A stretch of DNA of 64,000 nucleotides from Candidatus Sungiibacteriota bacterium (GTDB lineage: Bacteria > Patescibacteriota > Minisyncoccia > Sungbacterales > SURF-37): assembly GCA_016186145.1 (NCBI GenBank), contig JACPMF010000009.1, forward strand, positions 17,505 to 81,504. The letters run 5' to 3'. Below the pieces are notes generated by a model. That model was not told where the DNA came from. It did no database searches and worked only from the letters and a program-made list of their open reading frames with translations. Shown one piece after another: positions 309 through 53,171 of the stretch (position 1 is its first letter; every line of letters starts with the position of its first letter). The position numbers and the translations under genes are program-made.

Positions 309-526
309 AATTTGTATTTACACGGCATGCCGTAGAACGTTGCTCTGAAAGAAATATAAAATTGAAAGATATAAAATATGCGGTAACGTCGCCTGATAAA
401 TTACGCATTGTAGCCGGAGGCGCGATTGAAGCATCAAAATTGATTCGGCAAAAAGTTTTGATCGTACGCTTCGAAATAAACAAAGAAATAAGGAAAATAA
501 TAACAGCATTTTATGAATCCCGTTAG
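305..526 (+). CDS. DUF4258-like small protein (putative toxin of a DUF4258/DUF2283 pair)
   Basis: 73 aa, [10 protein letters not shown] motif typical of DUF4258; the start overlaps the clpP stop. The TAG stop is supplied by the left terminus of an inserted hairpin element. Confidence 0.45.
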
Positions 527-678
527 AAGTCCTGCCTGTCGGCCTGCCTGCCGGTAGGCAGGCGGGCAGGCGCGATCACTTCTTAAACCATACGGGGTTC
601 ATAAGATATTAAAGGGATTAGAAATTTATTACGCAGACGGCGATCGTTTGATCGCGATCTGCTTCTAACGGGATGAAG
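513..678. mobile_element. MITE-like hairpin element, copy F (termini aTGAAtcccgttagaag ... cttctaacgggATGAAg)
   Basis: 16-17 bp inverted termini flanked by the direct repeat ATGAA. The interior carries the GC palindrome cctgcctgccggtaggcaggcgggcagg. The same termini recur at 19365, 30117 and 52118. Confidence 0.55.
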
Positions 679-2333: not shown

Positions 2334-3803
2334 TCAACTCTTCCGGCCCTGCTCAAACGTATATGCCGCTGACAGGATAGTTGTCTCATCAAACCACTTC
2401 CCGATAAACTGCAACCCGACCGGAAGGTTCTTTTCTTCGCGCTCAACCGTTCCGCAGGGAAGGGATAGCGCCGGAATACCGGCCAAATTTACCGCAACCG
2501 TATAGATATCAGCCAGATACATCTGCAACGGGTTTGCCGTTCGCTCCCCAAGGCGAAACGCAGGCGTCGGCGACGTCGGCCCGACAATAATATCAACCGT
2601 TCGAAAAGCGCTCTTAAAGTCCTCTTGGATCAGGCGTCTCACCTGCTGGGCTTTGTTGTAATAAGCGTCATAATAACCCGCAGAAAGCGCATAGGTGCCG
2701 AGCATGATTCTTCGTTTAACTTCTGCGCTAAAACCGTCTGCTCGTGTTTTTGCGTAAACTTCATATAAATTTTCCGCGTCTGTCCGCGATTGAGAGTGTC
2801 CGCATCTGTCCGCGATTGAGAATCCGTATCTTATGCCGTCGAACCTCGCGAGATTAGCAGAAACCTCTGCAGGCATAACCAAATAATAAACCGGGAGAGC
2901 AAGACGCGCATGCGGTAAACTTATTTCCTGAACTTCCGCGCCGAGGCGAGTTAACTCCGCAATGGCCTGATGTATTCGCGCCCCCACATCACCCTCCAAG
3001 CCCTCACCAAAATACTCTTTCGGAACGCCCACTTTTAACCCACGGAGCGACCCTCTTCTGTCTAATACAAACGGTTTCGTCTCGACTGTTGTCGCATCAT
3101 AACGGTCGCGCCCCCGAATTGCTTCGAAAAGAAGCGAAGCATCCTCAACGGTCTTAGTGATCGGGCCAATCTGGTCCAAAGAAGATGCCATAGCAATGAG
3201 GCCGTGCCGCGATACTCCCCCATAGGTTGGCTTTAAGCCGACCACGCCGCAAAAAGAAGCCGGCTGACGGATTGAACCACCCGTATCTGACCCGAGCGCT
3301 GCCAGGGCAAGATCCGCGGCAACCGCAGCCGCGGACCCTCCGGAAGACCCCCCCGGGACTCGTCCCAAATCATACGGGTTTCTGGTCGGCCCAAAAGCTG
3401 AATTCTCGGTAGACGATCCCATTGCAAATTCGTCCAAATTTGTTTTTCCCAAAAATACCGCTCCCGCATGTTTTAATTTTTCTATCACCGTAGCGCTGTA
3501 TGAAGCGATATATGGTTCAAGAATTTTTGACCCGGCCGTTGTCTTTGTTCCGCGAATAAGTATGTTGTCTTTTACCGCAATCGGCATGCCCATCACCGTG
3601 GTATCGATTTCTTCGGCGCCGATTTTTTCATCGATGCCATCCGCCTGTCGCAGCGCCTCTTCTTCAAAAACGTCAAGATAAGCACGAATTTCTTCATTCT
3701 TACCTTTGATATTTTTAAGATAATGCGAAACAACCTCTCGACAGGAGAATTTTTTTGCTTTTAAGCCAGAAACAATTTTTGTGATAGTAAGATTTTCCAC
3801 CAA
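2334..3803 (-). CDS. gatA: Asp-tRNA(Asn)/Glu-tRNA(Gln) amidotransferase subunit A
   Basis: Amidase signature GGSSGGSAAAVAA...GSDTGGSIRQPA and full-length collinearity with GatA. Contains a 17-bp direct repeat (2779-2795 / 2805-2821) that encodes a ~9-aa insertion. Confidence 0.92.
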   Translation of the reverse strand: MVENLTITKIVSGLKAKKFSCREVVSHYLKNIKGKNEEIRAYLDVFEEEALRQADGIDEKIGAEEIDTTVMGMPIAVKDNILIRGTKTTAGSKILEPYIASYSATVIEKLKHAGAVFLGKTNLDEFAMGSSTENSAFGPTRNPYDLGRVPGGSSGGSAAAVAADLALAALGSDTGGSIRQPASFCGVVGLKPTYGGVSRHGLIAMASSLDQIGPITKTVEDASLLFEAIRGRDRYDATTVETKPFVLDRRGSLRGLKVGVPKEYFGEGLEGDVGARIHQAIAELTRLGAEVQEISLPHARLALPVYYLVMPAEVSANLARFDGIRYGFSIADRCGHSQSRTDAENLYEVYAKTRADGFSAEVKRRIMLGTYALSAGYYDAYYNKAQQVRRLIQEDFKSAFRTVDIIVGPTSPTPAFRLGERTANPLQMYLADIYTVAVNLAGIPALSLPCGTVEREEKNLPVGLQFIGKWFDETTILSAAYTFEQGRKS

Positions 3804-4260: not shown

Positions 4261-6679
<2,419 letters not shown>

Positions 6680-6713
6680 TTATCCGCATGAAGCGAAGCG
6701 ATCTGCTTCTAAA

Positions 6714-10571: not shown

Positions 10572-10749
10572 GATGTTAGTATATTATACCGGAATTTAAA
10601 CGTCGAATCATGAATAATGAATTATGAATACGAAAGAGCCCCGATTTCTAATTCATAATTCATTATTCAACATCTGGATTTCGATAAAAAAATCTCCCAC
10701 CCCGCGAGGTGAGAGATCGCATTAGTTACCAGTAGCCAGCTACCAATAC

Positions 10750-11217: not shown

Positions 11218-11436
11218 AGAATTTTTAAAAAATTTACGGATAAATAAAATTATAAACCTGTTGACCTTAATACCTCCCTAGTATACCCCTGTACAGCAAA
11301 CCAAAGCAAAGAGCCAGTTATCCACACCCGTTCGCTAACGCTCCACCAGCGAATGACGAATCCTTTACGAATTTACGAATAATAACGGGCTCCAATTCGT
11401 ATATTCGCGACTGATTCGCAATTCGTTGATATTTAC

Positions 11437-12844: not shown

Positions 12845-13909
12845 CTACCTTTTCATCAACAAACTTAGCTCCTGCGGATTCAAGGAATAAATAAGAGCCG
12901 TCTCAACCGTTATTTCTCCTCTCCGGACAAGATCGACAAGGGAACGATTCAGTGAAACCATGCCTTCCCCGGAACTCGTCTCAATCACGATATCAATCTC
13001 ATGGGCCTTATTCTCCCTGATAAGGTTTCGTATTGCGGGATTTGCAATCATAACTTCAGCGGCAGGAATAAGCCCGCCGGAGGCTCTCGGCAAGAGCCGC
13101 TGGGAAACGATACCGATAAGAGAGCCCGCGAGCTGAGCGCGAATCTGGTCCTGCTGAGCTGATGGGAACGTATCAATGATACGATCAATGGTCTGCGCGG
13201 CATTGTTGGTATGGAGACTGGAAAGAATAAGGTGCCCGGTTTCTGCCGCGGTCACCGCGGTCGCCATCGTTTCACCGTCTCTCATCTCGCCAACCATAGC
13301 TACATCCACATCTTCTCGGAACATGGAACGAAGCGCCCGATGGAAACTTGCGGTATCAATACCCACTTCCCGTTGGTCAATAATCGATCGATCTGACGCA
13401 AAAAGATACTCAATAGGGTCTTCAACAGTAATAATATGCTCGGATCGGGAATGATTAATATAATCAATGAGCGCAGCAAGAGTTGTCGTCTTTCCATGCC
13501 CCGTCGGCCCTACTACCAAAATAAATCCCTGCTGATGACTTACTAAATCAAGAAGCACCGTCGGAAGATTCAGCTCCTCAACGGTACGGATTGCGGTCGG
13601 AATAAGCCGCATCGCACAGCCGACAAAACCCCGCTGGAGAAAAATGTTCACCCGAAAACGGCCTTTATCTTTATATGCGTAAGAGAAGTCAAGCTCCTTT
13701 TCTCCCAAAAACTTTGCGTGCTGATCTTTGGGGAGCAGCTGAAAAACAAACTCTTGCGCAAGCTCCGGGGTTACGAGTGGAAATTTAACAAGCTCGATAA
13801 GGCCCCCGTCAACTCTCAATGTCGGCCGCCTTCCGACAGCAATATGCAGGTCCGACGCGCCCTGCTTGAATACCGCCTGAATTAATTCATCAAAAAAATC
13901 TTGTTGCAT
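12845..13909 (-). CDS. pilT: twitching-motility retraction ATPase
   Basis: Walker A GPTGHGKTTT, Asp box, His box, ~350 aa as for PilT/PilU. Confidence 0.85.
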   Translation of the reverse strand: MQQDFFDELIQAVFKQGASDLHIAVGRRPTLRVDGGLIELVKFPLVTPELAQEFVFQLLPKDQHAKFLGEKELDFSYAYKDKGRFRVNIFLQRGFVGCAMRLIPTAIRTVEELNLPTVLLDLVSHQQGFILVVGPTGHGKTTTLAALIDYINHSRSEHIITVEDPIEYLFASDRSIIDQREVGIDTASFHRALRSMFREDVDVAMVGEMRDGETMATAVTAAETGHLILSSLHTNNAAQTIDRIIDTFPSAQQDQIRAQLAGSLIGIVSQRLLPRASGGLIPAAEVMIANPAIRNLIRENKAHEIDIVIETSSGEGMVSLNRSLVDLVRRGEITVETALIYSLNPQELSLLMKR

Positions 13910-13913
13910 GGTA

Positions 13914-14036
13914 TATAATGCTAATCTACGAATGAAATGCGAATGCCGCTAATTATTAGCATGACATATTCCAGTACTACGCTCGCCCGCTATTCGCGGC
14001 ATTCGCATATTATTTGCATAATTCGCATTATGCTTA
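13914..14036. promoter_or_regulatory. 123-bp leader/promoter repeat, copy 1 (immediately upstream of pilT)
   Basis: Identical to 16239-16361. Contains the IR gcgaatgccgc...gcggcattcgc and the hairpin gcataattcgcattatgc. Confidence 0.6.
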
Positions 14037-14515: not shown

Positions 14516-16234
14516 TTATACCACTTCCAACAACTCCTTCATCCCCACAACACCTTTCAACGCTTTGTAAAAACCGTCCTGACGGAGCGTAATCATGCCT
14601 TGTTTCTTAGCCTCTTCGGCGAGTTTAAATTCTGTCGGCCCGGAAAGAATAATTTTCTCGAGCTGCGGCGTCATTTCAAGCGCTTCAAAAACGCCTATCC
14701 TCCCCTTGGTCCCCATCGGGCAAAAAGAAGAGACCTCGCCTTCGTAGAGTGGCCCGGTCATGAGCTTTTCAAGCTCGCGGCGAGCGGACTCCGGCATTTC
14801 GGCAAGCTCGTCCCCAATCAGCTCTTTGGCGCGCCCCTCCAATTTAACTTCTTTTTTTGAATCAGGACACAGTGTCCGTACCAGGCGCTGGGCAACCGCC
14901 AAAATAAGCGTTGACGGAATCAAAAACGGTTCCACGCCCAAATCAACCAAGCGCGGGATAACGCCGACGGCGTTATTCGTGTGGAGAGTTGAAAGCACCA
15001 GATGGCCCGTGAGCGCCGCGTGAATCGCAAGCTGAGCAGTTTCCCGATCCCGTATCTCGCCAACCATAATAATATCGGGGTCCTGGCGAAGAATCTGGCG
15101 AAGCCCGGAAGAAAAATCATATCCTATCTCCGGACGCACCTGGGACTGATTTACCCCGGATATATAGTACTCGACCGGATCTTCCAAACTTACGATGTTC
15201 ACACCCTCCTTATTCAAAATGTTAAGAATTGCATAGAGTGTCGATGATTTTCCTGAACCGGTGGGGCCGGTAAGCAGCACCAAACCGAACGGTTTTCGTA
15301 TACTCCGCTCGACAACTTCAAGATTCCGCCCGTCGATACCAAGCTCCGGGAGAGTTTTAATGCCGACCGCCGGATCAAGAATACGAATCGCCGCCTTTTC
15401 ACCGTACTGCGCAGGGAATGTCGCAACGCGAAAGTCAATCTCCCGATCAAGCACCCGCGCATGAAACCTACCGTCTTGCGGAATACGAGTCTCGTCTATT
15501 TTCATATTCGTCATGATTTTGATACGAGAAATGATGGCGCTCTGTACCGCAGAAGGCAACACCAAGGTTGTATGCAAAACGCCGTCAACCCGGAAACGAA
15601 CCCTCACCTGCCGCGGTTCCGGCTCAATATGAATATCAGACGCCTTTCCTTCAACGGCATGACGCAATATAACACCGACCATTTTTGTGATTGGCGCCTC
15701 TTCGGCCATTTTCTCAAGTTCTGCTGCGCGCGGAGGACGACCCACCACATCAACCTCAAGTTCTTTTTCAAATTCGGTCAAAGACCGGGTAACTTCGCCG
15801 CCGAGCGTTTTGTATTCCGTAAGTACGGCCTTAAGATCGCCCGGCGTAATGATGAAAATTTTAAAAGGGATGTTCAGCCGCGTTGCAATAAACTTGAGTG
15901 CCTCTTGCGCATTCACGTCGTCAGGGTTGACCATTCCAATCTCAAGCGACCCGTCCCCGCTTTTCTCAATAGGAATAAACTTGTAAAACTTTGCCGATTC
16001 TTCCGGAATATTCCGCAGAATCTCGAACTCGACTTTTCCTCCCTCGAGGAAACGAGCCGGAATGCCCAAAAGCTCTGATTTTGCCAAAGCGACATCCCGC
16101 TCCGGAATGCCATGCTGATAAAAAATGTCTTCAAGCGGCCGACCGGTTGATTTTGCCTCCCGTCGCATTCCTGAGGCCGCTTCTTGCGTCAAGACCCCTT
16201 TTTGAGCGAGAACATCAGCAATTGATTTAGCCAT
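14516..16234 (-). CDS. pilB: type IV pilus assembly ATPase (GspE family)
   Basis: 572 aa: N1/N2 domains, Walker A GPTGSGKS, Asp/His boxes, tetracysteine motif C..C...C..C. Confidence 0.85.
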   Translation of the reverse strand: MAKSIADVLAQKGVLTQEAASGMRREAKSTGRPLEDIFYQHGIPERDVALAKSELLGIPARFLEGGKVEFEILRNIPEESAKFYKFIPIEKSGDGSLEIGMVNPDDVNAQEALKFIATRLNIPFKIFIITPGDLKAVLTEYKTLGGEVTRSLTEFEKELEVDVVGRPPRAAELEKMAEEAPITKMVGVILRHAVEGKASDIHIEPEPRQVRVRFRVDGVLHTTLVLPSAVQSAIISRIKIMTNMKIDETRIPQDGRFHARVLDREIDFRVATFPAQYGEKAAIRILDPAVGIKTLPELGIDGRNLEVVERSIRKPFGLVLLTGPTGSGKSSTLYAILNILNKEGVNIVSLEDPVEYYISGVNQSQVRPEIGYDFSSGLRQILRQDPDIIMVGEIRDRETAQLAIHAALTGHLVLSTLHTNNAVGVIPRLVDLGVEPFLIPSTLILAVAQRLVRTLCPDSKKEVKLEGRAKELIGDELAEMPESARRELEKLMTGPLYEGEVSSFCPMGTKGRIGVFEALEMTPQLEKIILSGPTEFKLAEEAKKQGMITLRQDGFYKALKGVVGMKELLEVV

Positions 16235-16238
16235 GATG

Positions 16239-16361
16239 TATAATGCTAATCTACGAATGAAATGCGAATGCCGCTAATTATTAGCATGACATATTCCAGT
16301 ACTACGCTCGCCCGCTATTCGCGGCATTCGCATATTATTTGCATAATTCGCATTATGCTTA
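16239..16361. promoter_or_regulatory. 123-bp leader/promoter repeat, copy 2 (immediately upstream of pilB)
   Basis: 100% identical by eye to copy 1 at 13914-14036. Confidence 0.6.
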
Positions 16362-16649
16362 AAACGGCGCGAACGGATTCTTCCGGCCGGGCACCGTGCT
16401 TGTTTTTGTCGAAGTGCCGGTTCCAAACGTCTGAAGAGGACTGAAAAGAGACCGGAAGAATGGATCGGTAAAGATACTCAAGTCCGGCTTAAGAGATTTG
16501 ATCTGCCGATAACGGGAAAGCAGCTCTGACCGGGTCCCCGCAGGCGCCTCAACGGTTTCTGCCTGGGATCCAAAAAAATACTGATAGAGAAAATACCCGG
16601 TAAGAACCAGTGCTACGACCAAAACTATGAGAAAAATTGTTTGCCGCAT
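16359..16649 (-). CDS. small membrane protein (T4P locus)
   Basis: N-terminal TM helix, 96 aa, between the PilO-like gene and pilB. Confidence 0.4.
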   Translation of the reverse strand: MRQTIFLIVLVVALVLTGYFLYQYFFGSQAETVEAPAGTRSELLSRYRQIKSLKPDLSIFTDPFFRSLFSPLQTFGTGTSTKTSTVPGRKNPFAPF

Positions 16650-16835
16650 GCGAATTTTATTTACGAGCTTTAGCGAATAACCATAAAATTCAGCACCCTG
16701 TTAAATAATTTCGCCGGAGGCGAAATTCCTCTGCCTAATAAAATCAGAGATTTTATTAGGCAGAGGATTTAACAGGGTAAAAGTTTGGCAGCTAAATTTT
16801 GTTCGGCTTCGTCTCCAAAATTTAGGCCAAGCCGT
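16650..16835. repeat. composite 3'-UTR repeat, copy A (conserved hairpin + palindromic core ccctgttaaat...atttaacaggg)
   Basis: Flanks ~85% identical to 58246-58303 / 58113-58141; the core palindrome is different but self-complementary. Confidence 0.55.
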
Positions 16836-17390
16836 TTACCTTGAATAGTACGTCGCTGCGTTCAAAGAGAACTCAAGCGGGCCCTCTCTTGCATCTTGCT
16901 GCCTGGTACCGAAAGAAATGTCCGCCACATCAACAATGCGCACCGTTTTTTCAAGATCCCGGAGGAACGCGCCGAATGACTCGTAACTGCCAAGCATCTT
17001 TAACGAGACGTCAACCGGAATTACTTGCCGCTCTGTGGGAAGTTTAAGCTGGGACGTGGTCGGCTTCTCTTGAGAAACAAAATCTATGCTCCGCAAGAAC
17101 ATGCCGTGTCGCTTGGCAAGCGCCTCGATATCTCGGACAAACTGCGCGCTTCCAAGTCCTCGCGGAACCATGGCAGAAAGTTTATTAAGGTCAGTCTGCG
17201 AAATAGAATTATACTGTCCCATCAGTTCGTCTCGAACCCCGGCAATATCCTGCAATTCGTCGTTTAAAGCAGTAAACTCGGCAATCTCGACTTGAAGGTC
17301 CGTCACTTTTTGCCATGCAGGAAAAACGCCGGAAAAAAAGACGACAACAGAGATGAAAAGAAAGATGATGGAGAAAACAAAACGAGTCAT
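16836..17390 (-). CDS. PilO-like pilus assembly protein
   Basis: N-terminal TM, coiled-coil, ~180 aa; position between the PilN-like gene and pilB. Confidence 0.5.
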   Translation of the reverse strand: MTRFVFSIIFLFISVVVFFSGVFPAWQKVTDLQVEIAEFTALNDELQDIAGVRDELMGQYNSISQTDLNKLSAMVPRGLGSAQFVRDIEALAKRHGMFLRSIDFVSQEKPTTSQLKLPTERQVIPVDVSLKMLGSYESFGAFLRDLEKTVRIVDVADISFGTRQQDAREGPLEFSLNAATYYSR

Positions 17391-18007: not shown

Positions 18008-18114
18008 AGATAGAGTTAGAGGCGGATAAATACGGATAGCTACGCGGACCCATGCGGATCCGCATTAATCCGCGTTGTCATCTGCATAAATCCGCTTCTA
18101 TCATCTTTTTATTT

Positions 18115-19364: not shown

Positions 19365-19483
19365 AATCCCGTTAGAGATAGGAAATGCCGCAGGCATTTC
19401 CGTTGATTATGATTGGTATAATGGCTTTCAGGCACATAATGCTGTTGGGTGGCCAAATAAAAAGTTTAAATCTCTAACGGGAT
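19365..19483. mobile_element. MITE-like hairpin element, copy D (ATAAAtcccgttagagata ... atctctaacgggATAAAa)
   Basis: Inverted termini with the 5-bp flanking direct repeat ATAAA; the interior holds the sub-hairpin ggaaatgccgcaggcatttcc. Lies between pilM and comF. Confidence 0.55.
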
Positions 19484-20830: not shown

Positions 20831-21107
20831 CGGTGAAAAAGTTTTGAAAATGTCCTTCTAATGCTTCAGGAGGAAACCGCAAAATTTTTCAATACCGCCG
20901 CGTAACGGCGGTTTATTTTTGAACGAAACATAAAAAAGGAAGCACAATGGCTTCCTTCTCACTACTTACTCAATATTATGGCGACCGGAATAGAAAAAAG
21001 ATTCCTCATAGGACATTACTAACGCGAAATAAAATTAAATATGGGTTTTGTAAATTTTGTAACGGGGTTCATGCCGCGTGTGGTGACTGATGGAGTTCCG
21101 ATGGGAA

Positions 21108-21551
21108 TTATTTAAAAATCTCGTCTATAGTTTTTCTATTATGCAGCCCCAAAAATGCGGTGCGCCTTTTTAACTCGTCAAACAAAATCCCAAATTTAGA
21201 AAACACGCTCTCACGCCCAAAAATGCGCGGACTAGATGCATTTTCTACGAAAATTATAGGTACTTTAATTTTCATACCGTCCAATTGAATTTTCACCATA
21301 TGACGATATCCCAACATTGATTCTCCCGAAACACCACGAACGATAAACTTTTTACCATTCGCGACATCTATACCCAACGTCTCTGCGTCAGCCGAGGGCA
21401 TAATGCTTGTTGTTGCACCGGAATCTAAATGAAAAACAGTACGCAGGCCGCGCCCGTTCTTTCCTAAAACAAAAAGCTCGGCCGCAGGGAATACCTCTAT
21501 GCGGCCGTCTTCTTGAAGGCGAAGACCATACGCGAAAATGTATTTGCTCAT
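21108..21551 (-). CDS. retropepsin-like aspartic protease (clan AA)
   Basis: Active-site HLDSGATTS; ~147 aa from the Met at 21551. That Met overlaps the upstream stop as ATGA (translational coupling). Confidence 0.65.
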   Translation of the reverse strand: MSKYIFAYGLRLQEDGRIEVFPAAELFVLGKNGRGLRTVFHLDSGATTSIMPSADAETLGIDVANGKKFIVRGVSGESMLGYRHMVKIQLDGMKIKVPIIFVENASSPRIFGRESVFSKFGILFDELKRRTAFLGLHNRKTIDEIFK

Positions 21552-21832
21552 ATCCTGTATACCACGGTTATCCCTTTCGGCACCGAAACAAGCAAAATAT
21601 CCCGCCATGTAGCGCGGGGGAACTTACGCTTAGCCTTTTTCAATACCTCTGTTGTGTCGATACCGGACGCTACGATCTTTCCACCAACAATAGCCACCTG
21701 TTGACCTCCGTACTTTTTAACATTGATTACGGGAGTAATGTCTCGCTTCATATGGCCTATTATACACAACTTACATAAAAAATCAAAACCCCGTAATAAT
21801 TTTACGGGGATAAAATTAATTTCGTGCTCCAC
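21548..21832 (-). CDS. small protein translationally coupled to the aspartic protease
   Basis: 94 aa (or ~67 aa from the internal Met); 4-nt ATGA overlap with the downstream protease gene. Confidence 0.4.
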   Translation of the reverse strand: MEHEINFIPVKLLRGFDFLCKLCIIGHMKRDITPVINVKKYGGQQVAIVGGKIVASGIDTTEVLKKAKRKFPRATWRDILLVSVPKGITVVYRI

Positions 21833-21910
21833 AATTAATCCGCGCCCCGATTGTAATCGGGGCGCGGAATTTTTGCGGACGAAATTAAAAAAGAAAGCGT
21901 GACGGCTTCC

Positions 21911-22225
21911 TTAAAACAATTTATAACAATCCACGGAAAGTGTGCCGATCTTGGGTGGCGTGACAACCTCAAAATGAAAACGTTTGCCGTCTTTGGAAAC
22001 AGACTCGATGATAAAAGAATTACCGTGAAGTTCCTTGAAAAGAACAACCCCATTCGCATCAGTAATTGCCTCGCGCACCACCGTACCGTCTGATAACTCA
22101 ACTAGCACTTTTGCATTCGGCGCGAGCTCGCATATCTTTACGCCTTGTACATAAGCCCACGCATGACCACCCATCACTAAAAAGAAAAGAAAGACGGACA
22201 CGGCCGCAAAAATCGCATTTCTCAT
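21911..22225 (-). CDS. small secreted protein (signal peptide)
   Basis: AAGGAGG RBS 7 nt before the ATG at 22225; N-terminal signal AIFAAVSVFLFFLVMGGHAWA. Confidence 0.45.
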   Translation of the reverse strand: MRNAIFAAVSVFLFFLVMGGHAWAYVQGVKICELAPNAKVLVELSDGTVVREAITDANGVVLFKELHGNSFIIESVSKDGKRFHFEVVTPPKIGTLSVDCYKLF

Positions 22226-22233
22226 GACAGCGA

Positions 22234-22355
22234 CCTCCTTATATCGGAAACTTTCTGCAAAGAACTTTACCTTTCTTAATAGTATCACTCTGGCTGTTTC
22301 CGGTCAATGCTTCAAAAATCAACCTCGCAACCTCTTTCATTTCTTTTTCTTTCAT
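22234..22355. repeat. copy of glyA 3'-terminal ~110 bp (att-like module), copy 3
   Basis: ~97% identical to 25362-25481 (the last ~40 codons of glyA plus the RBS region). Confidence 0.7.
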
Positions 22356-22414
22356 CCCGCCTCATTTCATTTCGCGGTTCAAAATATCATGGGTGCCGAC
22401 GCGGCGAAGAACTA
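22356..22414 (-). pseudogene. RelE/ParE toxin 3' remnant
   Basis: Matches the last ~60 nt of toxin gene 24472-24732 (ttcgcggttcaaaatatcatgggt...); the rest of the gene is deleted. Confidence 0.55.
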
Positions 22415-22636
22415 TTATAATGAAGCAACAAGCGCCCCGCGTCCAGTAAATCGTCGAGATATCTTTTTTAGTTTAATCGCTTCATCGGCTTCCGCTTCTT
22501 TTTTTTGCCATTCAGGAGTCCAAAACCACTTTTCGTCTAAATTAACCCTTACTGACTTTCTCCATTTAGAAAACGCCTCAAATTCTTTATGAGGAATCAA
22601 AACAAACTTTCCTTTTGGAATAGTGATAACAGTCAT
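22415..22636 (-). CDS. putative antitoxin (paralog of 24735-24968)
   Basis: MTVITIPKGKFVLIPHKEFEAF..WRKSVRVNLDE.WFW.PEWQKKEAEADEAIK; ~85% identical to the antitoxin upstream of RelE at 24472. Confidence 0.5.
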   Translation of the reverse strand: MTVITIPKGKFVLIPHKEFEAFSKWRKSVRVNLDEKWFWTPEWQKKEAEADEAIKLKKISRRFTGRGALVASL

Positions 22637-22695
22637 GATTTTAGTATACATATAAACCGATAACAGTCAAATAAAAAAGGAAGCGTGACGGCTTC

Positions 22696-22932
22696 CTAAG
22701 AATAACTTTGATCGCTTTTTACATACTGAATTACGTCGTCGACGTGTTTCCAAAGTCCTATGCTTAACCCAACACCAGTCACCGCTGCGATAGCACTGAA
22801 TCCAAACACGTTATTTTCACTTACTGCGAAAACTGCTAAACTGCCGAACACTAATACAATGACAAATTGTGCTACTGCGGCGAAAACTATTTCCGCCGTA
22901 ATCCTAGCCCTTCTTAACTTTGTACTCACCAT
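22696..22932 (-). CDS. small membrane protein
   Basis: 78 aa, two TM helices; rho-independent terminator (aggaagccgtcacgcttcc + T run) right after the stop. Confidence 0.35.
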   Translation of the reverse strand: MVSTKLRRARITAEIVFAAVAQFVIVLVFGSLAVFAVSENNVFGFSAIAAVTGVGLSIGLWKHVDDVIQYVKSDQSYS

Positions 22933-22951
22933 TTGCCCCTTCCCTTTTTGA

Positions 22952-23281
22952 CTATCTTACCCGCATCCATGAACCGTCTTTCCTGCGGCGATATCTTCGC
23001 TTTTCATTTTGAACTAAAACTTTATCCATCTCCCGATCAGTGTTAACGCCCAAAATCTCAAGAAACCCGAGATCAAACACCATCAGATCAATTAAAGCGT
23101 TAATAACCTTACTGCGGTTTCCTCTCCTATGCGCGGCGGCAAGTTCTCCGAGCTCTTCGACAAGGTGGACAATCTCTTCACGCACACCATTCCGGCTTCT
23201 ACTAACATTAAAACCTTTTGCAACTTTATTTCGGTATATTCTTCGCTGCAGCAACTTAAGATGGCCGCACCCTTTGCTCAT
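22952..23281 (-). CDS. MazG-like small nucleotide pyrophosphohydrolase (tentative)
   Basis: EEIVHLVEELGELAAA...ALIDLMVFDLGFLEILGVNTD.E...V..N.KR pattern resembles the MazG all-alpha NTP-PPase fold. Confidence 0.4.
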   Translation of the reverse strand: MSKGCGHLKLLQRRIYRNKVAKGFNVSRSRNGVREEIVHLVEELGELAAAHRRGNRSKVINALIDLMVFDLGFLEILGVNTDREMDKVLVQNEKRRYRRRKDGSWMRVR

Positions 23282-23411
23282 TAACTAATCCTCCTTATAT
23301 CGTAAATTTCTTGCAAAGAGCTGTCACTTTCTTACTCGTACTATTTTTACTATTTCCTGTCAACGTTTCGTAAATCAACCCTGCAATTTCTTTCATCGCC
23401 TTTTCTTTCAT
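23282..23411. repeat. diverged copy of glyA 3'-terminal module, copy 2
   Basis: Collinear with 25362-25481 at roughly 75% identity (by-eye estimate). Confidence 0.6.
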
Positions 23412-23493
23412 CCCGTTACAAAATTTACATAAGTCATTTACGAAATATAACCATTTTTAGTCTAAAAAAACAAAATTCAATCAAAGATCTTGT
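23411..23493. mobile_element. hairpin element H (tcccgttacaaaatttaca ... tgtaaattttgtaacggga)
   Basis: 19-bp perfect inverted repeat sharing the TCCCGTTA core; a half-copy lies at 21048-21074. Confidence 0.45.
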
Positions 23494-23561
23494 AAATTTT
23501 GTAACGGGATTCGTGCCTAACTGTTGTGGCAACGAACGGCGTCACAATATAAAGCCGGAGG

Positions 23562-23828
23562 TTATTGATAAATGTTGCTCGCACGGCGCAGTACTTCTTT
23601 AATTTCAACAACGCCTGCGCCAGTCCGTATGGAATAAAAGATGCGATAATTACCTACACGCCTCCGCCATAAATCATCTCTCTCGCCAATTTTAGCGATA
23701 TCTCCCAGCCACGGATCGATAACAAAATCGCGAAGCGCGTTTAATATACGTTCGCGATCGCGGATAGGTAGACGTTTGATTTGTTTTTTAACGCGTTTTG
23801 GTATGTGTACGACCCAGCTCATTTTCAA
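23562..23828 (-). CDS. RelE/ParE-family type II toxin
   Basis: ...VGNYRIFYSIRTGAGVVEIKEVLRRAS is a typical RelE/ParE C-terminus; overlaps the upstream antitoxin. Confidence 0.7.
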   Translation of the reverse strand: MKMSWVVHIPKRVKKQIKRLPIRDRERILNALRDFVIDPWLGDIAKIGERDDLWRRRVGNYRIFYSIRTGAGVVEIKEVLRRASNIYQ

Positions 23829-24024
23829 AATCTTCTAAAGTCACATAAGCGCCGTGCACCAGTTCCTTATCGCTTTTTTCAATGGCCCGCGCCTCTTTTT
23901 CGCTCAGTTTTACAACCGAAATAACCTTAGGCCGCCTACGAAGGAGTATTTCGTACTCTTTTCGGGGAATCACAACAAGGTCATCTTTACGAGCTAACTT
24001 TTTTGGAATAGTAATAATAGCCAT
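23788..24024 (-). CDS. putative antitoxin (AbrB/SpoVT-like ITIPKK motif)
   Basis: MAIITIPKKLARKDDLVVIPRKEYEILL; overlaps the RelE-like gene. Confidence 0.5.
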   Translation of the reverse strand: MAIITIPKKLARKDDLVVIPRKEYEILLRRRPKVISVVKLSEKEARAIEKSDKELVHGAYVTLEDFENELGRTHTKTR

Positions 24025-24092
24025 GAATAAAGCATACAAGAAACAACAATATAAAGTCAAACAAAAAAGGAAGCGCGGCGGCCTCCTAATAA

Positions 24093-24338
24093 TCAAAGAT
24101 CTTTTTTAGTATTCAAACCCCTTTTAAAAACCAACATTCCCATAAAAACGGCCCAGACACCTACTAATGTTCCAAAAGTCTGCCAAAGAAACTCACTGGA
24201 GTAAACAGAACCTCTATGCCGTAAAATGTAAATCCCCCCTCCGGACAGAGACATGCCGAAAATCATTAAAAGAAACCAAACAGTCCCCAATAAAAATATA
24301 GTCGTACCACTATAAATTCCGAGCCTCCTCATGGTCAT
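24093..24338 (-). CDS. small membrane protein
   Basis: GGAGGG RBS; two TM helices; 81-83 aa. Confidence 0.4.
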   Translation of the reverse strand: MTMRRLGIYSGTTIFLLGTVWFLLMIFGMSLSGGGIYILRHRGSVYSSEFLWQTFGTLVGVWAVFMGMLVFKRGLNTKKDL

Positions 24339-24344
24339 GGTCAA

Positions 24345-24466
24345 ACCCTCCTATATTGAAAATTTTCTGCAAAGAACTTTAACTCTCATACTCGTAGCAC
24401 GGAGGTTATGCATCGTCAACGCTTGATAAATCAGCCAGCGATTTCTTTCATCTGTTTTTCTTTCAC
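24345..24466. repeat. diverged copy of glyA 3'-terminal module, copy 1
   Basis: Ends conserved with 25362-25481 (ATGAAAGAAA... / ...AGTTAAAGTTCTTTGCAG...ATATAGGAGG); the centre is diverged. Confidence 0.55.
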
Positions 24467-24471
24467 CCGCC

Positions 24472-24732
24472 TCATTTCCTTTCGCGGTTCAAAATATCAT
24501 GGGTACCTGCGCGGCGAAGAATTATCGTTTGGTTATCAAGTTGAAAAGTGAAACGATACCCGCGGCTTATACGCGCATACCAAATCTCTGTGCCGGGAAG
24601 TTTCTTTGCGCGAAGTGAAGAATGCCGAATGTTTTCTAATAAAAATCCGAGCGCCTTGCCAAGCGCTCGTTGAATATTCTGCGGCAAATCTTTATAGTCT
24701 CTTTTAAACGGCCCCGTATAGACAATCTCCAT
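24472..24732 (-). CDS. RelE/ParE-family type II toxin
   Basis: ...YRFTFQLDNQTIILRRAGTHDIL, a typical ParE/RelE fold signature. Confidence 0.7.
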   Translation of the reverse strand: MEIVYTGPFKRDYKDLPQNIQRALGKALGFLLENIRHSSLRAKKLPGTEIWYARISRGYRFTFQLDNQTIILRRAGTHDILNRERK

Positions 24733-24734
24733 TT

Positions 24735-24968
24735 CTATTTACGCTTTAGTGAAGCAACAAGCGCATTGTGTTTAGTAAATCGCCGGGACATTTTTTTTCG
24801 TTTAATCGCTTCATCAGCCTCGGCTTCTTTTTTTTGCCACTCCGGAAACCAAAACCATTGTTCATCCAAATTAACCCGTACTGACTTTCTCCATCTAGAA
24901 AACGCTTCAAATTCTTCGTGAGGAATCAGAACAAATTTCCCTTTTGGAATAGTAATAATTTTATTCAT
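24735..24968 (-). CDS. putative antitoxin (ITIPKGKFVLIPHEEFEAF...)
   Basis: Paralog of 22415-22636; 3 nt upstream of the toxin. Confidence 0.5.
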   Translation of the reverse strand: MNKIITIPKGKFVLIPHEEFEAFSRWRKSVRVNLDEQWFWFPEWQKKEAEADEAIKRKKMSRRFTKHNALVASLKRK

Positions 24969-25035
24969 AGATATTTTATTATACCGAAAATATGAACTAA
25001 AAGTCAAACAAAAAAGGAAGCACGATAACTGCTTC

Positions 25036-25350
25036 CTATGTTTCTGGACAATAAAGTTTTGTTTCTATGCCGTTGAAAAAGCCTGCGCCCTTCCCGACCC
25101 CCGGACCATCTTGATACCAAAATATAATCTCCCAGTAACCCTTGGCGATATTCTCAAATCGGGCCACACCGTTAACAGGTTTTACATCTAAAATCGCGCC
25201 TGTACTCTGGATAGAAATTAGTTCAACCCCGGCATCATCATCTACGCAGACAACCAAGTTGGTCGTAACGAAATACCGATCGTAAACCCCCAGCCCAATC
25301 GCACCAAGAAACGCTGCTATCAAAACCACGAAAACCCACTTCCCCCACAT
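25036..25350 (-). CDS. small secreted protein (signal peptide)
   Basis: AAGGGAGG RBS; MWGKWVFVVLIAAFLGAIGLG signal; first gene after the glyA stop. Confidence 0.45.
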   Translation of the reverse strand: MWGKWVFVVLIAAFLGAIGLGVYDRYFVTTNLVVCVDDDAGVELISIQSTGAILDVKPVNGVARFENIAKGYWEIIFWYQDGPGVGKGAGFFNGIETKLYCPET

Positions 25351-28934: not shown

Positions 28935-29108
28935 TTAACCAACAAAATACTAACTTCTAAATCCCTGCCTGCGCGCGACGCGCGGGTAGGCGAAATCCTA
29001 AACAAATTCTAAACCACAAATTTTTAAATCCAAAACATGTTTGGAATTTAGAGTTTGTGAATTGTGATTTGTTTAGGATTTAAAGTTTAGGGCTTATGGT
29101 TTTATAAA

Positions 29109-29930
29109 TTACACTGCCATCGGCGCTTTAATCGCCGGATGCGACTCATAATCAACAAGCTGAATATCGTCCATAGTGAAACTGTCTATATCTTTTACTT
29201 CTGGTTTAAGCCGCAATTTTGACAACGGAAATGTTTCGCGTCCTAATTGCTCTTTAACTTGATCAAAGTGGTTATGGTAAATATGGGAATCGCCAAGTGT
29301 ATGAATAAATTCTCCCGGAGTCAAACCCGCAACTTGCGCGACCATGTGTAAAAGCAAGGAGTAAGAAGCGATATTAAAAGGTACTCCCAAAAACATATCG
29401 CACGAGCGCTGGTACATCTGGAGCGACAGTCTTCCGTCTGCAACATAAAACTGTGAAAAGGCATGGCACGGCGGAAGAGCCATCTGATCAATTTCTCCGG
29501 GATTCCACGCAGTCAAAATAAGACGCCGGTCATGCGGGTCTTTTTTAATTCGCTCTATGACATCTTTGATCTGGTCTATTTCTCTGCCATCCGGGGCTCT
29601 CCATGATCTCCATTGAACGCCGTATATCCTACCGACATCTCCATTAAAACGAGCTTTCGGTTTCCAGTACGGCGCCTCGGCATTTGCATCCCAAATACGC
29701 GCGCCAAGCTCATTTAATTTTTTTACATCGGAACTGCCCTGCAAAAACCACAAAAGCTCGGCCTTAACTGGATTAAAAGCAAGTTTTTTGGTGGTTATCG
29801 CCGGAAAACCATCGCTCATCTTGTACCTCATCTGCATTCCAAAAACCGCTCTGGTCGGAATTCCTGTCCGATTCGGCTTATCAACACCGTTTTCAAGAAT
29901 ATATTTTAGTGAATCGAGGTATTGTTTCAT
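29109..29930 (-). CDS. thyA: thymidylate synthase (ThyA type)
   Basis: MKQYLDSLKYILENG..K.NRTG, catalytic LPPCHAFSQFYV, and Asn in GVPFNIASY (dUMP specificity). Start set at Met57 of the track ORF by alignment. Confidence 0.9.
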   Translation of the reverse strand: MKQYLDSLKYILENGVDKPNRTGIPTRAVFGMQMRYKMSDGFPAITTKKLAFNPVKAELLWFLQGSSDVKKLNELGARIWDANAEAPYWKPKARFNGDVGRIYGVQWRSWRAPDGREIDQIKDVIERIKKDPHDRRLILTAWNPGEIDQMALPPCHAFSQFYVADGRLSLQMYQRSCDMFLGVPFNIASYSLLLHMVAQVAGLTPGEFIHTLGDSHIYHNHFDQVKEQLGRETFPLSKLRLKPEVKDIDSFTMDDIQLVDYESHPAIKAPMAV

Positions 29931-30116
29931 GCGAATTTTATCCCGCAACTTCCGCGACCGAAGGGAGCGCGAGGTTGGCGAGGACCCCGCACCTCCCGAA
30001 CTGCTGACTCGGTAAAATTCAGAGTCAGTATCGCGGAAGTACGGGACCGCGCACTCAAACCTCACTTCGTTCGGGATGGTGCGGTGGTTTACGAGCATTA
30101 GCGAGTAACTATAAAA

Positions 30117-30240
30117 TTCATCCCGTTAGAAGCAGATCGCGATCAAACAGTTGTCTTCTGCGTAGATTTTATTCATTTCTACTATTGTAAGGTATTAGCC
30201 TTTTAAAATTCGGTAGCGATCGCGGCTTCTAACGGGATTC
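30117..30240. mobile_element. MITE-like hairpin element, copy C (ttcatcccgttagaagc ... gcttctaacgggattc)
   Basis: Termini and subterminal gatcgcgatc match copy F in inverse orientation; TGAA/ATGAA duplication at the insertion point, which lies inside another repeat (gggtgctgaa^ttttatag). Confidence 0.55.
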
Positions 30241-30242
30241 AG

Positions 30243-30391
30243 CACCCAGCACATAAATTTACAGTCGTCGTTTAGGGTATTTCAAGGTTATTTCATCAGC
30301 CCCGTGATTAAAATTATCCGACGGATGTAAATTTATGTGCTGGGTGAAGGTTTTGTAACTAAAATTTCATCGCCTGCGGCTCGAAATTTTA
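30243..30391. repeat. composite 3'-UTR repeat, copy C2 (palindromic core cacccagcacataaatttaca...tgtaaatttatgtgctgggtg + conserved hairpin)
   Basis: Same flanks as copies A and B (hairpin ctaaaatttc...gaaattttag, ttacaaaacc); different self-complementary core; directly after the dcd stop. Confidence 0.5.
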
Positions 30392-31069
30392 GACAAAGCC
30401 CTTCACCTCCCAATCTTTATGCATCTGCGGAATCATCATGTGCGGATTCCATGACTTTTTAACTTCTTCTATCTCTTGGGACAACTGATATTTCCCGCCT
30501 TCCCCAACATAATCCGGCGCTGTCTTCAACGGCTCGACTTCATAAAAAACCATCTGGCCGATTCTCCGGCCAACAACAAGCGGTATGGTAAAATATTGAG
30601 AATTATTGGTAACCTCCATAGTCCAGCGATTGAAATAACCGATATCGCCCCATCCGGCATCTTTGCAAACCTCGACAAAATTCCTGCCAAGCGAAGACCG
30701 GGCATACATTTTGCCGACGACCTTATGCCGGCCGCCGATGAATTCGAGCGTGTGAGCAAGGACGGTCTCCCCAGGCCTTAATAAAATCACTTTTTCGTCG
30801 GGTTTAATGTTTTTGAGCCCAACTCCGGTCCGGCTTGACACACCTTCAGCAAGTTCTGCCTGATACGGACCTGACCAAACGCGCTTGGTGGACTCTTCGT
30901 CGTAAAGATTGTGCAAAGTGGCCCCCCCATCAGGATGTTTTTCTTTCCAATACCAATCGCCGAGCGTAACATCATAGCTCGTTGTCTTAAGTTTCCGCCC
31001 GTCAAAAGGATCAACAACTATCGTCCCTCCTTTAATGTGCCGTAAAATTGCGTCGCGAGATAACAACAT
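30389..31069 (-). CDS. dcd: dCTP deaminase family protein
   Basis: MLLSRDAILRHIKGGTIVVDPF...SYDVTLG N-terminus and G.GDIGY...T.E..N core; longer (226 aa) than canonical Dcd. Confidence 0.7.
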   Translation of the reverse strand: MLLSRDAILRHIKGGTIVVDPFDGRKLKTTSYDVTLGDWYWKEKHPDGGATLHNLYDEESTKRVWSGPYQAELAEGVSSRTGVGLKNIKPDEKVILLRPGETVLAHTLEFIGGRHKVVGKMYARSSLGRNFVEVCKDAGWGDIGYFNRWTMEVTNNSQYFTIPLVVGRRIGQMVFYEVEPLKTAPDYVGEGGKYQLSQEIEEVKKSWNPHMMIPQMHKDWEVKGFV

Positions 31070-48859: not shown

Positions 48860-49110
48860 CTACGCGGGGGCAAGCCCCCGCGGTTTTTAAGGATGACTCT
48901 GCCCCGCTCAAATTTTGCTTCGTGAGCCAAAGCGAAGCGCTTCGCCAGAAATGCGGAATGCGCCTATTCGGCGCGCGCTTCGCTCTATTCTAAAGTTTTA
49001 ATGTTGATTTAGTAAGGACGGCATTGCAAGGTGAAAGCAAAATTTGAGCGGGGTTAGCCCTCGTGCTCCGCCATTCACCGCGGCGGCAAGCCGCCGCAGT
49101 TTCTGGCGGA
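48860..49110. repeat. complex repeat: 20-bp inverted repeat gccccgctcaaattttgctt ... aagcaaaatttgagcggggt, flanked by two related GC hairpins
   Basis: Perfect 20-bp IR ~110 bp apart; each flank has a GC-rich hairpin (cgcgggggcaagcccccgcg / gcggcggcaagccgccgc) followed by ..ggaYKactctgsc. Confidence 0.5.
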
Positions 49111-50617: not shown

Positions 50618-51330
50618 TAACAGTACCTTGCCAGGAAATTATTCCTGCCAAGTGGCGTGCGGCTAAAGGATTACAAGCCGAGCCCTTGCGGACATTATGG
50701 AACCCGGGAATAAACAACATTATGTATCCGCCACAGGCGGATCAGTCCCGATCCGTTCCAAGAGTGCCGATTTTAGTCCTTTACTCGCATCATTCTTGGC
50801 AGGAATAGCTTATCACCCGCTCTCTTGAGCCATGGGAACACTAGCCCCGCACCAATTTTGCCTTATCAAACCGTAGGTTTTGTAAGTAAAAAGGAGGGGC
50901 AAAACACTTGAGCGAAGTGCGTGTGCCGGAACCCCGCAGTAGAGTAAGGCTCACTACGGGGCAAGTAGGCACGGATTCTGAAATAAGGGCGACCTGCCCC
51001 GTAGGGAACGCGAAGCGTTATCCTTCGGGGAGCACTTCGCCACAGAGTGGTAATGCAAAATTGGTGCTGGGGTATTTTCAAAATAGGCCCGATTTTAATA
51101 AAGGGCAGGCCCTTCGAGGACCAATGGCTCAAAAGAACGGGTGATTAGTTCAACTTTTAAAGAAAGGGTAGAGGTAACCCCCGATGAAGTTGCGGATAAT
51201 TCGCGGCAAGGAGAAACGGATTCCGATCCGTCTTCCGTTGCCGCCGGTTGGACGCCCGCATAGCACGCCGAAGGGCGCGCGTGGGTATAATCGTTCTGAA
51301 ACGCGGCGCCTGGAACGCGCCGCAAAGGAG
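50618..51330 (+). ncRNA. candidate structured non-coding RNA / very long leader downstream of the consensus promoter
   Basis: No convincing ORF for ~700 nt. Many local and long-range complementarities (e.g. cctgccaag/cttggcagg 140 nt apart; atccgccacaggcggat). Class not recognised. Confidence 0.3.
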
Positions 51331-52117: not shown

Positions 52118-52243
52118 ATGAATCCCGTTAGAGATATGAAACTTAAATCTTTTTATGCGAAACTAACAGCAATTGTTAGTTCATAAGTTGCCAGATAGTC
52201 AAGATGTGGAAACCTTAGGTTTCCTATCTCTAACGGGATGAAG
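52118..52243. mobile_element. MITE-like hairpin element, copy E (ATGAAtcccgttagagata ... tatctctaacgggATGAAg)
   Basis: Perfect 14-bp termini, ATGAA direct repeat; the right-hand ATGAA supplies the ATG of the ORF at 52238. Confidence 0.55.
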
Positions 52244-53099: not shown

Positions 53100-53171
53100 G
53101 CCCCCGTAGTTCAATGGACAGAACAGGGGCGTTCTAAGCCCTTGATGTGGGTTCGATTCCTACCGGGGGCG
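53100..53171 (+). tRNA. tRNA-Arg (TCT)
   Basis: Manual fold: acceptor gcccccg/cgggggc, D-stem gttc/gaac, anticodon loop gtTCTaa, T-arm gtggg-ttcgatt-cctac. Confidence 0.8.

Follow-up and report, generated by a model that had tools for sequence, protein, structure and literature searches.

The 64,000-nucleotide window analysed here (positions 17,505 to 81,504 of contig JACPMF010000009.1, Candidatus Sungiibacteriota bacterium) contains three copies, A, B and C, of a composite palindromic module that fills the interval between the stop codon of one gene and the start codon of the next. The module is probably a copy of a nested mobile mosaic that resembles paired repetitive extragenic palindromic sequences (REPs, paired as REPINs) and miniature inverted-repeat transposable elements (MITEs) and that is associated with a GIY-YIG nuclease. 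Read on the minus strand, the copies are located at the stops of a PilO-like gene (A), ftsE (B) and dcd (C), as had been proposed in an earlier note on this DNA; direct reading bears this out, and each conserved motif occurs three times in the window, above the counts in shuffled sequence. The separated neighbours, as confirmed by Pfam, are PilO and a 96-aa open reading frame (ORF), FtsE and FtsX, and DCD and ThyA.

All three copies consist of three consecutive hairpins (H1, H2 and H3) spanning the upstream stop to the downstream start (Table 1). H1 is a conserved hairpin of ∼60 nt with the stop codon of the upstream gene within its base, H2 is a hypervariable, near-perfect palindrome that is non-homologous between copies, and H3 is a third hairpin that ends 2–3 nt ahead of the next ATG. 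The H1 stretch runs from the upstream stop codon to ...AAACCTTTACC and contains the stems TAAATTTTC/GAAAATTTA and TTGGC/GCCAA (TTTGT/ACAAA in copy C) above a basal stem TAAAGG/CCTTTA, replaced by GGTGAAGG/CCTTCACC in copy C, that encloses the stop codon. The hairpin cTAAAtTTTc...gAAAAtTTAg of the earlier note is real but was drawn too short, since TTGGC/GCCAA and TAAAGG/CCTTTA also pair; likewise, the sites after the stop codons hold, but the stop codon itself sits inside the H1 stem (the dcd TAA is within the hairpin). The 5′ flanks are 84% identical between A and B (53/63; ∼85% had been claimed), 82.5% between B and C and 73% between A and C, and the central palindromes do differ in each copy and are near-perfect. 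The conserved 3′ flank is present, but is itself a hairpin (GAATTTTAT...ATAAAATTC in A) ending in GC-ATG. Copy B does split ftsE and ftsX, but by 218 nt (from the ftsE stop to the ftsX ATG at 58085) rather than ∼190. A covariance model of H1, the check that had been suggested, matches only copies A–C in the window, with 73–82 bits on the minus strand versus 19–29 bits on the plus strand.

In copy A, the inner H1 stems are TTGGC/GCCAA and CTAAATTTTG/CAAAATTTAG, the H2 arms surround two inner hairpins (16728–16766 and 16707–16727) with a core family also found in loci L016, L020 and L054, and H3 adjoins the ATG (16647–16649) of the 96-aa ORF. Copy C is ∼475 nt in length (29931–30407) and contains three nested palindromes. 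Its H1 includes the last six codons of dcd and the dcd TAA (30389–30391) and shows compensatory changes (TTTGT/ACAAA and TAAAATTTC/GAAATTTTA), while its H2 belongs to the family that fills the ftsE–ftsX module of the relative L085; CAGCAC repeats related to this H2 flank intact GIY-YIG genes elsewhere. The second nested element has entered between GGTGCTGAAT and TTTAT and shows a direct repeat, TGAA(T); H3 is broken by a third palindrome, CCGCACCATCCCGAAC...GTTCGGGAGGTGCGG (29987–30084). The true start of thyA is the ATG at 29928–29930 (MKQYLDSLKYILENG), with GATAAAATTCGC just before it, and is abutted by H3.

A 26-base H1 pattern (GGCTTKGYCTAAAWTTT-N12–20-AAAWTTTAG; chance expectation ∼0.05 matches), searched against 596 Gb, matched 53 loci, all from metagenome-assembled genomes of Patescibacteria and often present in several copies within one genome. 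The lineages include Wolfe-, Jorgensen-, Azam-, Yanofsky-, Brenner-, Harrison- and Magasanikbacteria, and the three-part architecture and the junction bases are common to all matches. A scan of viral contigs for H1 gave no matches. Logan contigs of the window's own species stop inside copy B, as expected of a repeat. The organism of the window is Sungbacteria-like, its FtsE sharing 69–76% identity with named matches. The module is thus a widespread multi-copy repeat of Parcubacteria-type Patescibacteria.

The stems of the module covary strongly. For 56 distinct H1 sequences and a 23-pair structure, 96.5% of positions are paired with 148 double-sided changes, a result matched by none of 500 shuffles and far above that of slid registers. 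Columns left free by the search pattern covary (UA:41/GC:14, UA:44/CG:10 and UA:34/AU:21), and the basal stem occurs as TAAAGG/CCTTTA, TAAGG/CCTTA, TTATTG/CAATAA, TGTTG/CAACA or TAATG/CATTA. The base stem of H3, assessed on a pseudo-alignment of 26 modules (5′ arm, fixed filler and 3′ arm), shows double-sided changes in all nine of its nine pairs, with 94.4% of cells paired, which is reached by none of 500 shuffles. Helices selected as RNA usually accept G·U but not A·C mismatches. H1 and H3 together contain 17 G·T and 17 A·C among 1522 cells; 39 distinct H2 hairpins (mean arm 17.7 nt, 25 perfect) contain nine and 11, respectively, so that the pooled stems show 26 G·T versus 28 A·C alongside the strong covariation. 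The constraint on pairing is therefore the same for either strand, as it would be in a DNA palindrome or hairpin: the stems are Watson–Crick on both strands, which points to a DNA palindrome rather than to RNA. In the whole window, only tRNAs reach the Rfam 15 gathering threshold, and a permissive Rfam scan of copy A returned only sub-threshold microRNA-like hairpins. Readings of H1 as tRNA-like or as a K-turn were dropped, as the defining motifs are absent from the sequence. An integron attC site was also rejected: attC sites have R′′/R′ core sites and follow promoterless accessory cassettes next to intI, whereas GCCAAAC/GTTTGGC does not fit the RYYYAAC...GTTRRRY core and the flanking genes are core housekeeping genes.

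The slot between ACC and GGTGCT that is occupied by H2 in the window holds an intact GIY-YIG ORF of 84–85 aa in L010, L015 and L024. The first two match Pfam PF01541 (E values of 8e-17 and 1e-13) and the third was recognized by tblastn, while the slot of L051 contains a truncated GIY-YIG ORF. The inverted repeats that closely enclose these ORFs are of the types seen in the H2 arms (CAGCACCTTTTT, CCCACACTCAAAAACTACT and CCGCACCTTTAGAAATT); such repeats are 12–24 nt long and tightly bound a gene for a protein of 84–87 aa. Homologues in other assemblies (63–73% identity) have a like layout at TrxB–GAPDH, PilT–PilC and DUF8128–TraG-like gene pairs, namely a stop codon, an H1 variant, ACC joined to CAGCACCTTTTT, ATG...TAA, AAAAAGGTGCTG joined to GGTGCTCAATTTT, H3, TTGGC and ATG. 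Their cassettes measure 281–295 bp from repeat to repeat, and the H1 variants beside them conserve the two basal stems with a variable main stem. A canonical H1 is missing from two more GIY-YIG cassettes, which precede nusA and rpsL. Overall, GIY-YIG genes are flanked by the units in at least seven independent loci and are the only genes found so flanked. A cassette with 49% identity in L088 (1–613), bounded by the inverted repeats CCACACCTC/GAGGTGTGG, lies in the 5′ region of a 16S rRNA gene, and its flanks, as we read them, would place it in the V1 hairpin; this fits a report of non-intron GIY-YIG insertions (PMC11270868).

The nearest solved structures to the cassette protein are UPF0213 (1zg2; E value of 2e-5) and SLX1 (7cq2; E value of 2.5e-3), and the match to TIGR01453 is weak (19 bits, far under the cut-off). 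The protein has the GIY-YIG catalytic domain (PF01541) of a free-standing homing endonuclease and consists of this domain only; it has no C-terminal sequence-specific DNA-binding domain and no NUMOD, zinc-finger or helix–turn–helix DNA-binding module. Among the repeat families, CAGCAC, CCCACACTC and CCGCACC occur with a GIY-YIG ORF; CAGCAC and CCGCACC also occur without one, and an ORF-less CCCACACTC copy is visible in the sequence of L026. The palindromes thus share terminal inverted repeats with an ORF-carrying partner, as MITEs do. The inverted-repeat-bounded GIY-YIG genes in the H2 slot argue that the H2 cores are ORF-less cassette derivatives, in which the two repeats of a cassette would be joined as a hairpin with the ORF lost. 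Nested cores (L014, L016, L020, L053 and window copy C) point to repeated insertion into palindrome centres. Short forms consisting of H1 and ∼20–30 nt before the ATG are present in L019, L025 and L052. Another GIY-YIG ORF was noticed in L056 (2412–2663, minus strand) among tRNA-like sequences, with a small TTCTAAATTTTATGCTAAAATTTAG hairpin ahead of it that gives a weak match (30 bits) to the H1 model.

At the other end of the module, the H1 model matches the opposite strand at the position of H3 in ∼24 loci (27–46 bits); L056 (50 bits) and L012 (61 bits), which are symmetric forms, match over almost the whole length. H3 is thus a diverged inverted copy of H1, and the module as a whole forms one large palindrome of composite structure with the cassette slot in its middle. 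Occupancy of gene junctions by the module also varies. The C-terminus of FtsE and the N-terminus of FtsX are conserved in relatives, whereas the junction between them differs. In L084 (FtsE 80% identical to that of the window) the junction is TAG-TTAATGT-ATG (7 nt) and the module is found elsewhere in the genome; in L086 (78%) it measures 42 nt and has no module; L085 (81%) has a module with compensatory H1 changes and the CAGCACATAAATTTACA core of the copy C family; and L082 (93%) has an unrelated AT-rich palindromic insert of ∼200 nt. A junction that is empty or differently or otherwise filled in relatives identifies the module as an insertion. Similarly, H1 is present between an RF gene and ftsE in L085 and L082 and absent there in the window, the occupied junctions of ribosomal protein operons differ between L019 and L027, and L019 carries two nearly identical 88-nt copies running from TAA to ATG. 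Modules have thus been gained, lost and re-filled at orthologous junctions. The suggestion that the site is an insertion hot-spot for different palindromic elements gains support from the different core families at one orthologous junction and from the nested insertions, and is extended by the GIY-YIG genes that share its slot in other genomes. The module as a whole might have been flanked by a target-site duplication, GGC...GGC (or ATG in L019), but this reading was set aside, as the copies do not agree on it (the window shows GGC to the left and CGC to the right).

The module is closely fitted to its neighbouring genes. The H1 base of 43 of 57 modules contains a TAA that terminates a co-oriented ORF lying upstream; this TAA is at position −5, −4 or −3 in 37 modules and at +9 in six, in which the last three codons are element-encoded. 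The next ATG directly follows (T/C)(G/C)GC in at least 27 of the 57. The downstream genes are mostly housekeeping genes, including those for ribosomal proteins S10, S13, S4, S3, L6, L18, L11, L15, L20 and L31 and for NusG, NusB, LepA, GyrB, RecR, SHMT, PilC, FtsX and ThyA. The earlier view of the module as a terminator-like element of the 3′ untranslated region was not sustained: H1 continues into CC and the palindrome with no U-tract, and a canonical terminator stands directly before the module in seven loci, indicating that H1 is not the terminator. A scan of copy A for consensus promoters and terminators found none on the minus strand within the module and one minus-strand match inside the downstream ORF. 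No Shine–Dalgarno sequence is present within the module. A −10-like hexamer (TAAAAT, CAACAT or TAACAT) lies 4 nt ahead of the ATG in 16 of 25 modules, and the promoter-like scores of these 25 module 3′ ends exceed those of shuffled sequence (6.9 versus 4.1 ± 0.6), with no consistent −35; L037 provides one good σ70 example (TTGCAT-17-TAGAAT-6-ATG). The '−10' bases covary as part of the H3 stem, and a promoter reading of the 25 ends was set aside for want of a −35 and for wrong spacing.

Two observations concern start codons more generally. Many genes in the window lack a Shine–Dalgarno sequence and have TATAAT-like boxes 3–7 nt before the ATG (for example TGGTATAAT-caat-ATG; starts at 14510, 50109-side 49351, 31069 and 10571), while others have a clear GGAGG; leaderless or Shine–Dalgarno-independent initiation may be widespread. 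Type IV pilin-like genes (GFTLIE...) downstream of the module in L021 (∼5470–5500) and L015 (∼3610–3640) seem to start at the TTG in the module's ATTGGC (M-A-G followed by FTLIE), or to have no obvious start; the TTG starts would imply extremely short leader peptides.

A mechanism can be sketched for the nuclease-associated mosaic. The palindromes would be extruded from the DNA into hairpins or cruciforms, and these structures would be cut at or near their tips by the small SLX1/UPF0213-like GIY-YIG nuclease. Repair from another copy, with H1 and H3 as homology arms, would copy or exchange the cassette; later loss of the ORF would leave the MITE-like H2 cores. The element may be tolerated within operons by being co-oriented with transcription, by carrying an in-frame TAA at its 5′ edge and by ending exactly at the next start codon. 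Selection could account for this orientation and stop-to-start fit, with the cassette needing host transcription and the element supplying stops and sparing the start codon. The transcript would fold into three hairpins and would probably uncouple or punctuate cistrons such as ftsE and ftsX, possibly via RNase III, as a consequence rather than a selected cause. More tentatively, and as a proposal in which we place less trust, the module could belong to an undescribed class of mobile element: a gene for an ∼85-aa SLX1/UPF0213-like nuclease, carried in its own hairpin, would spread by attack on the tips of DNA palindromes, its targets being the centre of an intergenic double-hairpin module and the stem-loops of rRNA. 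Such an element would be an analogue of REPINs and their REP-associated tyrosine transposases (RAYTs) built on a different enzyme, with the outer module serving as stop-to-start punctuation in essential operons (ftsEX and ribosomal protein operons).

Several observations weigh against the nuclease-associated mosaic. Its essentially fixed orientation relative to genes and its ends at stop and start codons are not predicted for a purely DNA-level parasite without added selection. H1 is much better conserved across lineages than is usual for REP-like repeats, a sign that there may be a trans-acting factor or a function that is itself conserved. The H3 hairpins of the window are short and only weakly like an inverted H1 (10.6 bits), and tblastn of GIY-YIG against the 64-kb window found no such gene. 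H2 lies between ...TTTACC and GGTGCT... with no direct repeat, so the target-site duplication of a MITE is missing. When metagenomes were scanned for an empty slot (H1 3′ arm, no more than 6 nt, TGCTC), the 17 matches were all random and none had H1 upstream, and no module among the fetched loci has an unoccupied slot; without any H2-less module in the metagenome collection, simple homing into a vacant slot is unproven. The nuclease action, cleavage and mobility mechanism are inferred.

The main rival is an intercistronic structured RNA, in which the hairpins would be selected as RNA (for 3′-end protection, RNase III processing, Shine–Dalgarno-independent or leaderless AUG use, or reinitiation) and the cores would be tolerated passengers. 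It is possible, and several features favour it: co-orientation with the flanking genes wherever one abuts (L012 has no called gene), the recurrent stop in the H1 base and ATG 2–3 nt past H3, the lack of a Shine–Dalgarno sequence in the module as in many genes of the genome, housekeeping and often ribosomal protein genes downstream with the same junctions occupied in different genomes, a very stable fold (z scores of −8.3 and −4.2), the strong strand asymmetry of H1, and the retention of RNase III in Patescibacteria (PMC12641178). We nevertheless think it unlikely, and an RNA-level role is superfluous for explaining the sequence constraints. No stem shows an excess of G·U over A·C, no Rfam family matches, and close relatives that express the same genes lack the module at the same junction, which tells against the structured RNA family raised in the earlier note as the primary constraint. 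H3 as an inverted H1, with the symmetric H1–H2–H1′ form free of flanking ORFs in L012, and long perfect arms that are wholly different between copies likewise suit copying as DNA better.

The same 3′ ends could instead belong to a portable cassette in which H1 and H2 terminate transcription and the H3 region restarts it at or just before the ATG of a leaderless mRNA. The −10-like hexamers, the scores above shuffles, the L037 example and the TATAAT-like boxes near the ATG of several other window genes are in line with this, and in the seven loci with a preceding terminator the downstream gene would need a promoter within the module. It is nonetheless improbable: the hexamers lack a regular −35 partner, a spacing of 4 nt implies that transcription would begin beyond the A of the ATG, the consensus scan is blank on the minus strand of copy A, no U-tract follows H1 or H2, and covariation of the '−10' bases with the H3 5′ arm is unlike a promoter element. 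We regard as very improbable a single-stranded DNA element of the IS200/IS605 or REP/RAYT type, with H1 and H3 as subterminal hairpins for a Y1 HUH transposase encoded elsewhere. Hairpin ends, Watson–Crick-only covariation, the lack of a target-site duplication and the REPIN-like occurrence of a single hairpin unit in inverted pairs would all suit it, and strand-specific insertion could explain the fixed orientation; against it, GIY-YIG alone is found flanked by the units, no GTAG-type REP head is present, and no TnpA or RAYT occurs in any fetched locus (neither was searched for genome-wide). Chance resemblance, or convergence of terminator hairpins on three stop codons, has nothing more to recommend it than that AT-rich hairpins are common after genes, and is effectively refuted by 53 loci where ∼0.05 were expected, the H1 covariation, the shared junction bases and the model scores; the earlier note had reserved this explanation for a failure to find further copies, and copies are found in many lineages.

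Table 1. Modules, stand-alone palindromic elements and reiterated-word stretches of the window.
Feature	Position	Strand	Description
Copy A, H1	16776–16838	minus	Base stem GGTAAA/TTTACC with the PilO-like TAA (16836–16838); model 72.9 bits
Copy A, H2	16696–16777	minus	Arms CCCTGTTAAAT/ATTTAACAGGG
Copy A, GGTGCTG + H3 + GC	16650–16697	minus	H3 = GAATTTTAT...ATAAAATTC
Copy B, H1	58244–58306	minus	ftsE TAA (58304–58306) in TAAAGG/CCTTTA base stem; 81.7 bits
Copy B, H2	58143–58245	minus	CCCCGTTAGAT.../...ATCTAACGGGG family
Copy B, GGTGCTC + degenerate H3	58086–58144	minus	Ends AACATTCGC before ftsX ATG (58083–58085)
Copy C, H1	30343–30407	minus	Base stem GGTGAAGG/CCTTCACC; 81.1 bits
Copy C, H2	30243–30346	minus	CACCCAGCACATAAATTTACA family, CAGCAC-type
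Copy C, second nested element	30122–30236	minus	CCCGTTAGA type; CCCGTTAGAAG...CTTCTAACGGG
Copy C, H3	29931–30121	minus	ATGAATTTTATAG...GATAAAATTCGC
Stand-alone palindromic element	519–672		CCCGTTAGA type; outside any H1/H3 module
Stand-alone palindromic element	52124–52237		CCCGTTAGA type; outside any H1/H3 module
Stand-alone palindromic element	23412–23508	minus	CCCGTTAGA type; outside any H1/H3 module
Stand-alone palindromic element	19368–19481		CCCGTTAGA type; outside any H1/H3 module
Reiterated-word intergenic stretch	6635–6686		
Reiterated-word intergenic stretch	18017–18100		
Reiterated-word intergenic stretch	10611–10669		
Reiterated-word intergenic stretch	11357–11431		
Reiterated-word intergenic stretch	28993–29081		
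Reiterated-word intergenic stretch	55657–55738		
Reiterated-word intergenic stretch	59056–59121		

The window contains further repeats. The stand-alone CCCGTTAGA elements immediately precede start codons (in the order ATGAAT, element, ATGAAG...) and show a short direct repeat of the T(G/A)AA type, which suggests that they may target ATGAA-like sites; a search of the fetched loci for an autonomous partner of this family found only neighbouring MITEs bracketing host genes. Stand-alone intergenic palindromes similar to H2 occur at 48902–49053 and 50844–51072 (CCCCGCTCAAATTTTGC... and CCCCGCACCAATTTTGC...), and both are core families in the modules of L008, L009, L024 and L043. Reiterated short words (GCGGAT/ATCCGC, ATTCG, TGAATAATGAAT and AAATCCTAAAC), often palindromic, are found upstream of genes, and the ftsE–ftsX spacer of the closest relative, L082, is of this kind. 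Two genes for T2SSE-type ATPases (12845–13909 and 14516–16234) are directly preceded by a 130-nt repeat (13907–14036 and 16232–16361; 98% identical), and within each copy is an inverted repeat of 23 nt (AATGAAATGCGAATGCCGCTAAT/...). Between 22233 and 25486, a unit of ∼1056 bp is present in four tandem copies (72–82% identical over the aligned 92 nt) that looks like an array of small paralogous genes; terminator-like hairpins recur from 20924 to 25040. The 3′ half of tRNA-Arg(TCT) (53135–53169) is repeated 55 nt downstream (53190–53224) with 86% identity; the repeat may be a trace of an integration event or a second tRNA that escaped detection.

Patescibacteria are considered to have streamlined, repeat-poor genomes. 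A conserved multi-copy mosaic between their essential genes splits coupled pairs of the ftsE–ftsX type and breaks short-read assemblies, and it offers a concrete setting in which to place the phylum's numerous small genes annotated as 'GIY-YIG nuclease family' and its unexplained non-intron GIY-YIG insertions in rRNA genes. It suggests a route of DNA mobility that would target structure without a known transposase, and it raises the question of how downstream genes that follow ∼200 nt of hairpins and lack a Shine–Dalgarno sequence are expressed. For annotation of these genomes, the H1 model offers a practical marker.

The element resembles REPs and their mosaics (bacterial interspersed mosaic elements, BIMEs, and REPINs), MITEs and free-standing homing endonuclease genes, and misses defining features of each; our literature search turned up no account of the module, nor of prokaryotic GIY-YIG mini-elements bounded by inverted repeats. 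With the REP/BIME and REPIN–RAYT systems of Proteobacteria it shares extragenic, multi-copy hairpin units in inverted pairs split by other motifs, a location between co-transcribed genes and a gene for the presumed mobilizing enzyme flanked by the units. In contrast to REPIN–RAYT, the flanked gene encodes an ∼85-aa GIY-YIG nuclease rather than a Y1 HUH RAYT (a RAYT was not searched for genome-wide), the unit is ∼60 nt with H1 starting GGCTT and no GTAG head, the module is kept across very deep lineages rather than being species-specific, and its orientation and ends are locked to stop and start codons. Like MITEs with an autonomous partner, such as the Correia elements of Neisseria, the module contains small ORF-less palindromes whose terminal repeats are common to a coding partner and which are nested, intergenic and co-transcribed, and the stand-alone CCCGTTAGA copies share their short direct repeat; unlike them, H2 always lies in one exact slot with no duplication, and the partner is a nuclease domain alone, with no known transposase. 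The cassette is comparable to free-standing GIY-YIG homing genes (the T4 seg genes and the I-TevI family) in being a co-oriented ORF between conserved host genes that is present or absent among relatives, with conserved sequence flanking the insertion point; it differs in encoding only a catalytic domain of 84–87 aa, in lying within perfect inverted repeats and in having as its target a hairpin module present in many copies instead of one unique sequence in a gene. SLX1 and UPF0213 (YhbQ-like) have the same small URI-type catalytic domain as the cassette protein, a predicted nuclease, but SLX1 acts with SLX4 in repair and has no association with mobile DNA. The nearest published report is a survey of rRNA insertions in the candidate phyla radiation (PMC11270868), in which GIY-YIG ORFs occur in insertions other than group I or II introns, insertions in general are mostly situated at the tips or bases of stem-loops, and the GIY-YIG ORFs are regarded as sparse and outside homing. 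The phylum and the occurrence of GIY-YIG in non-intron insertions are thus the same as for the module, and the inverted repeats, the ORF-less derivatives and the intergenic H1/H3 hairpins, which that paper does not describe, are what set the module apart.

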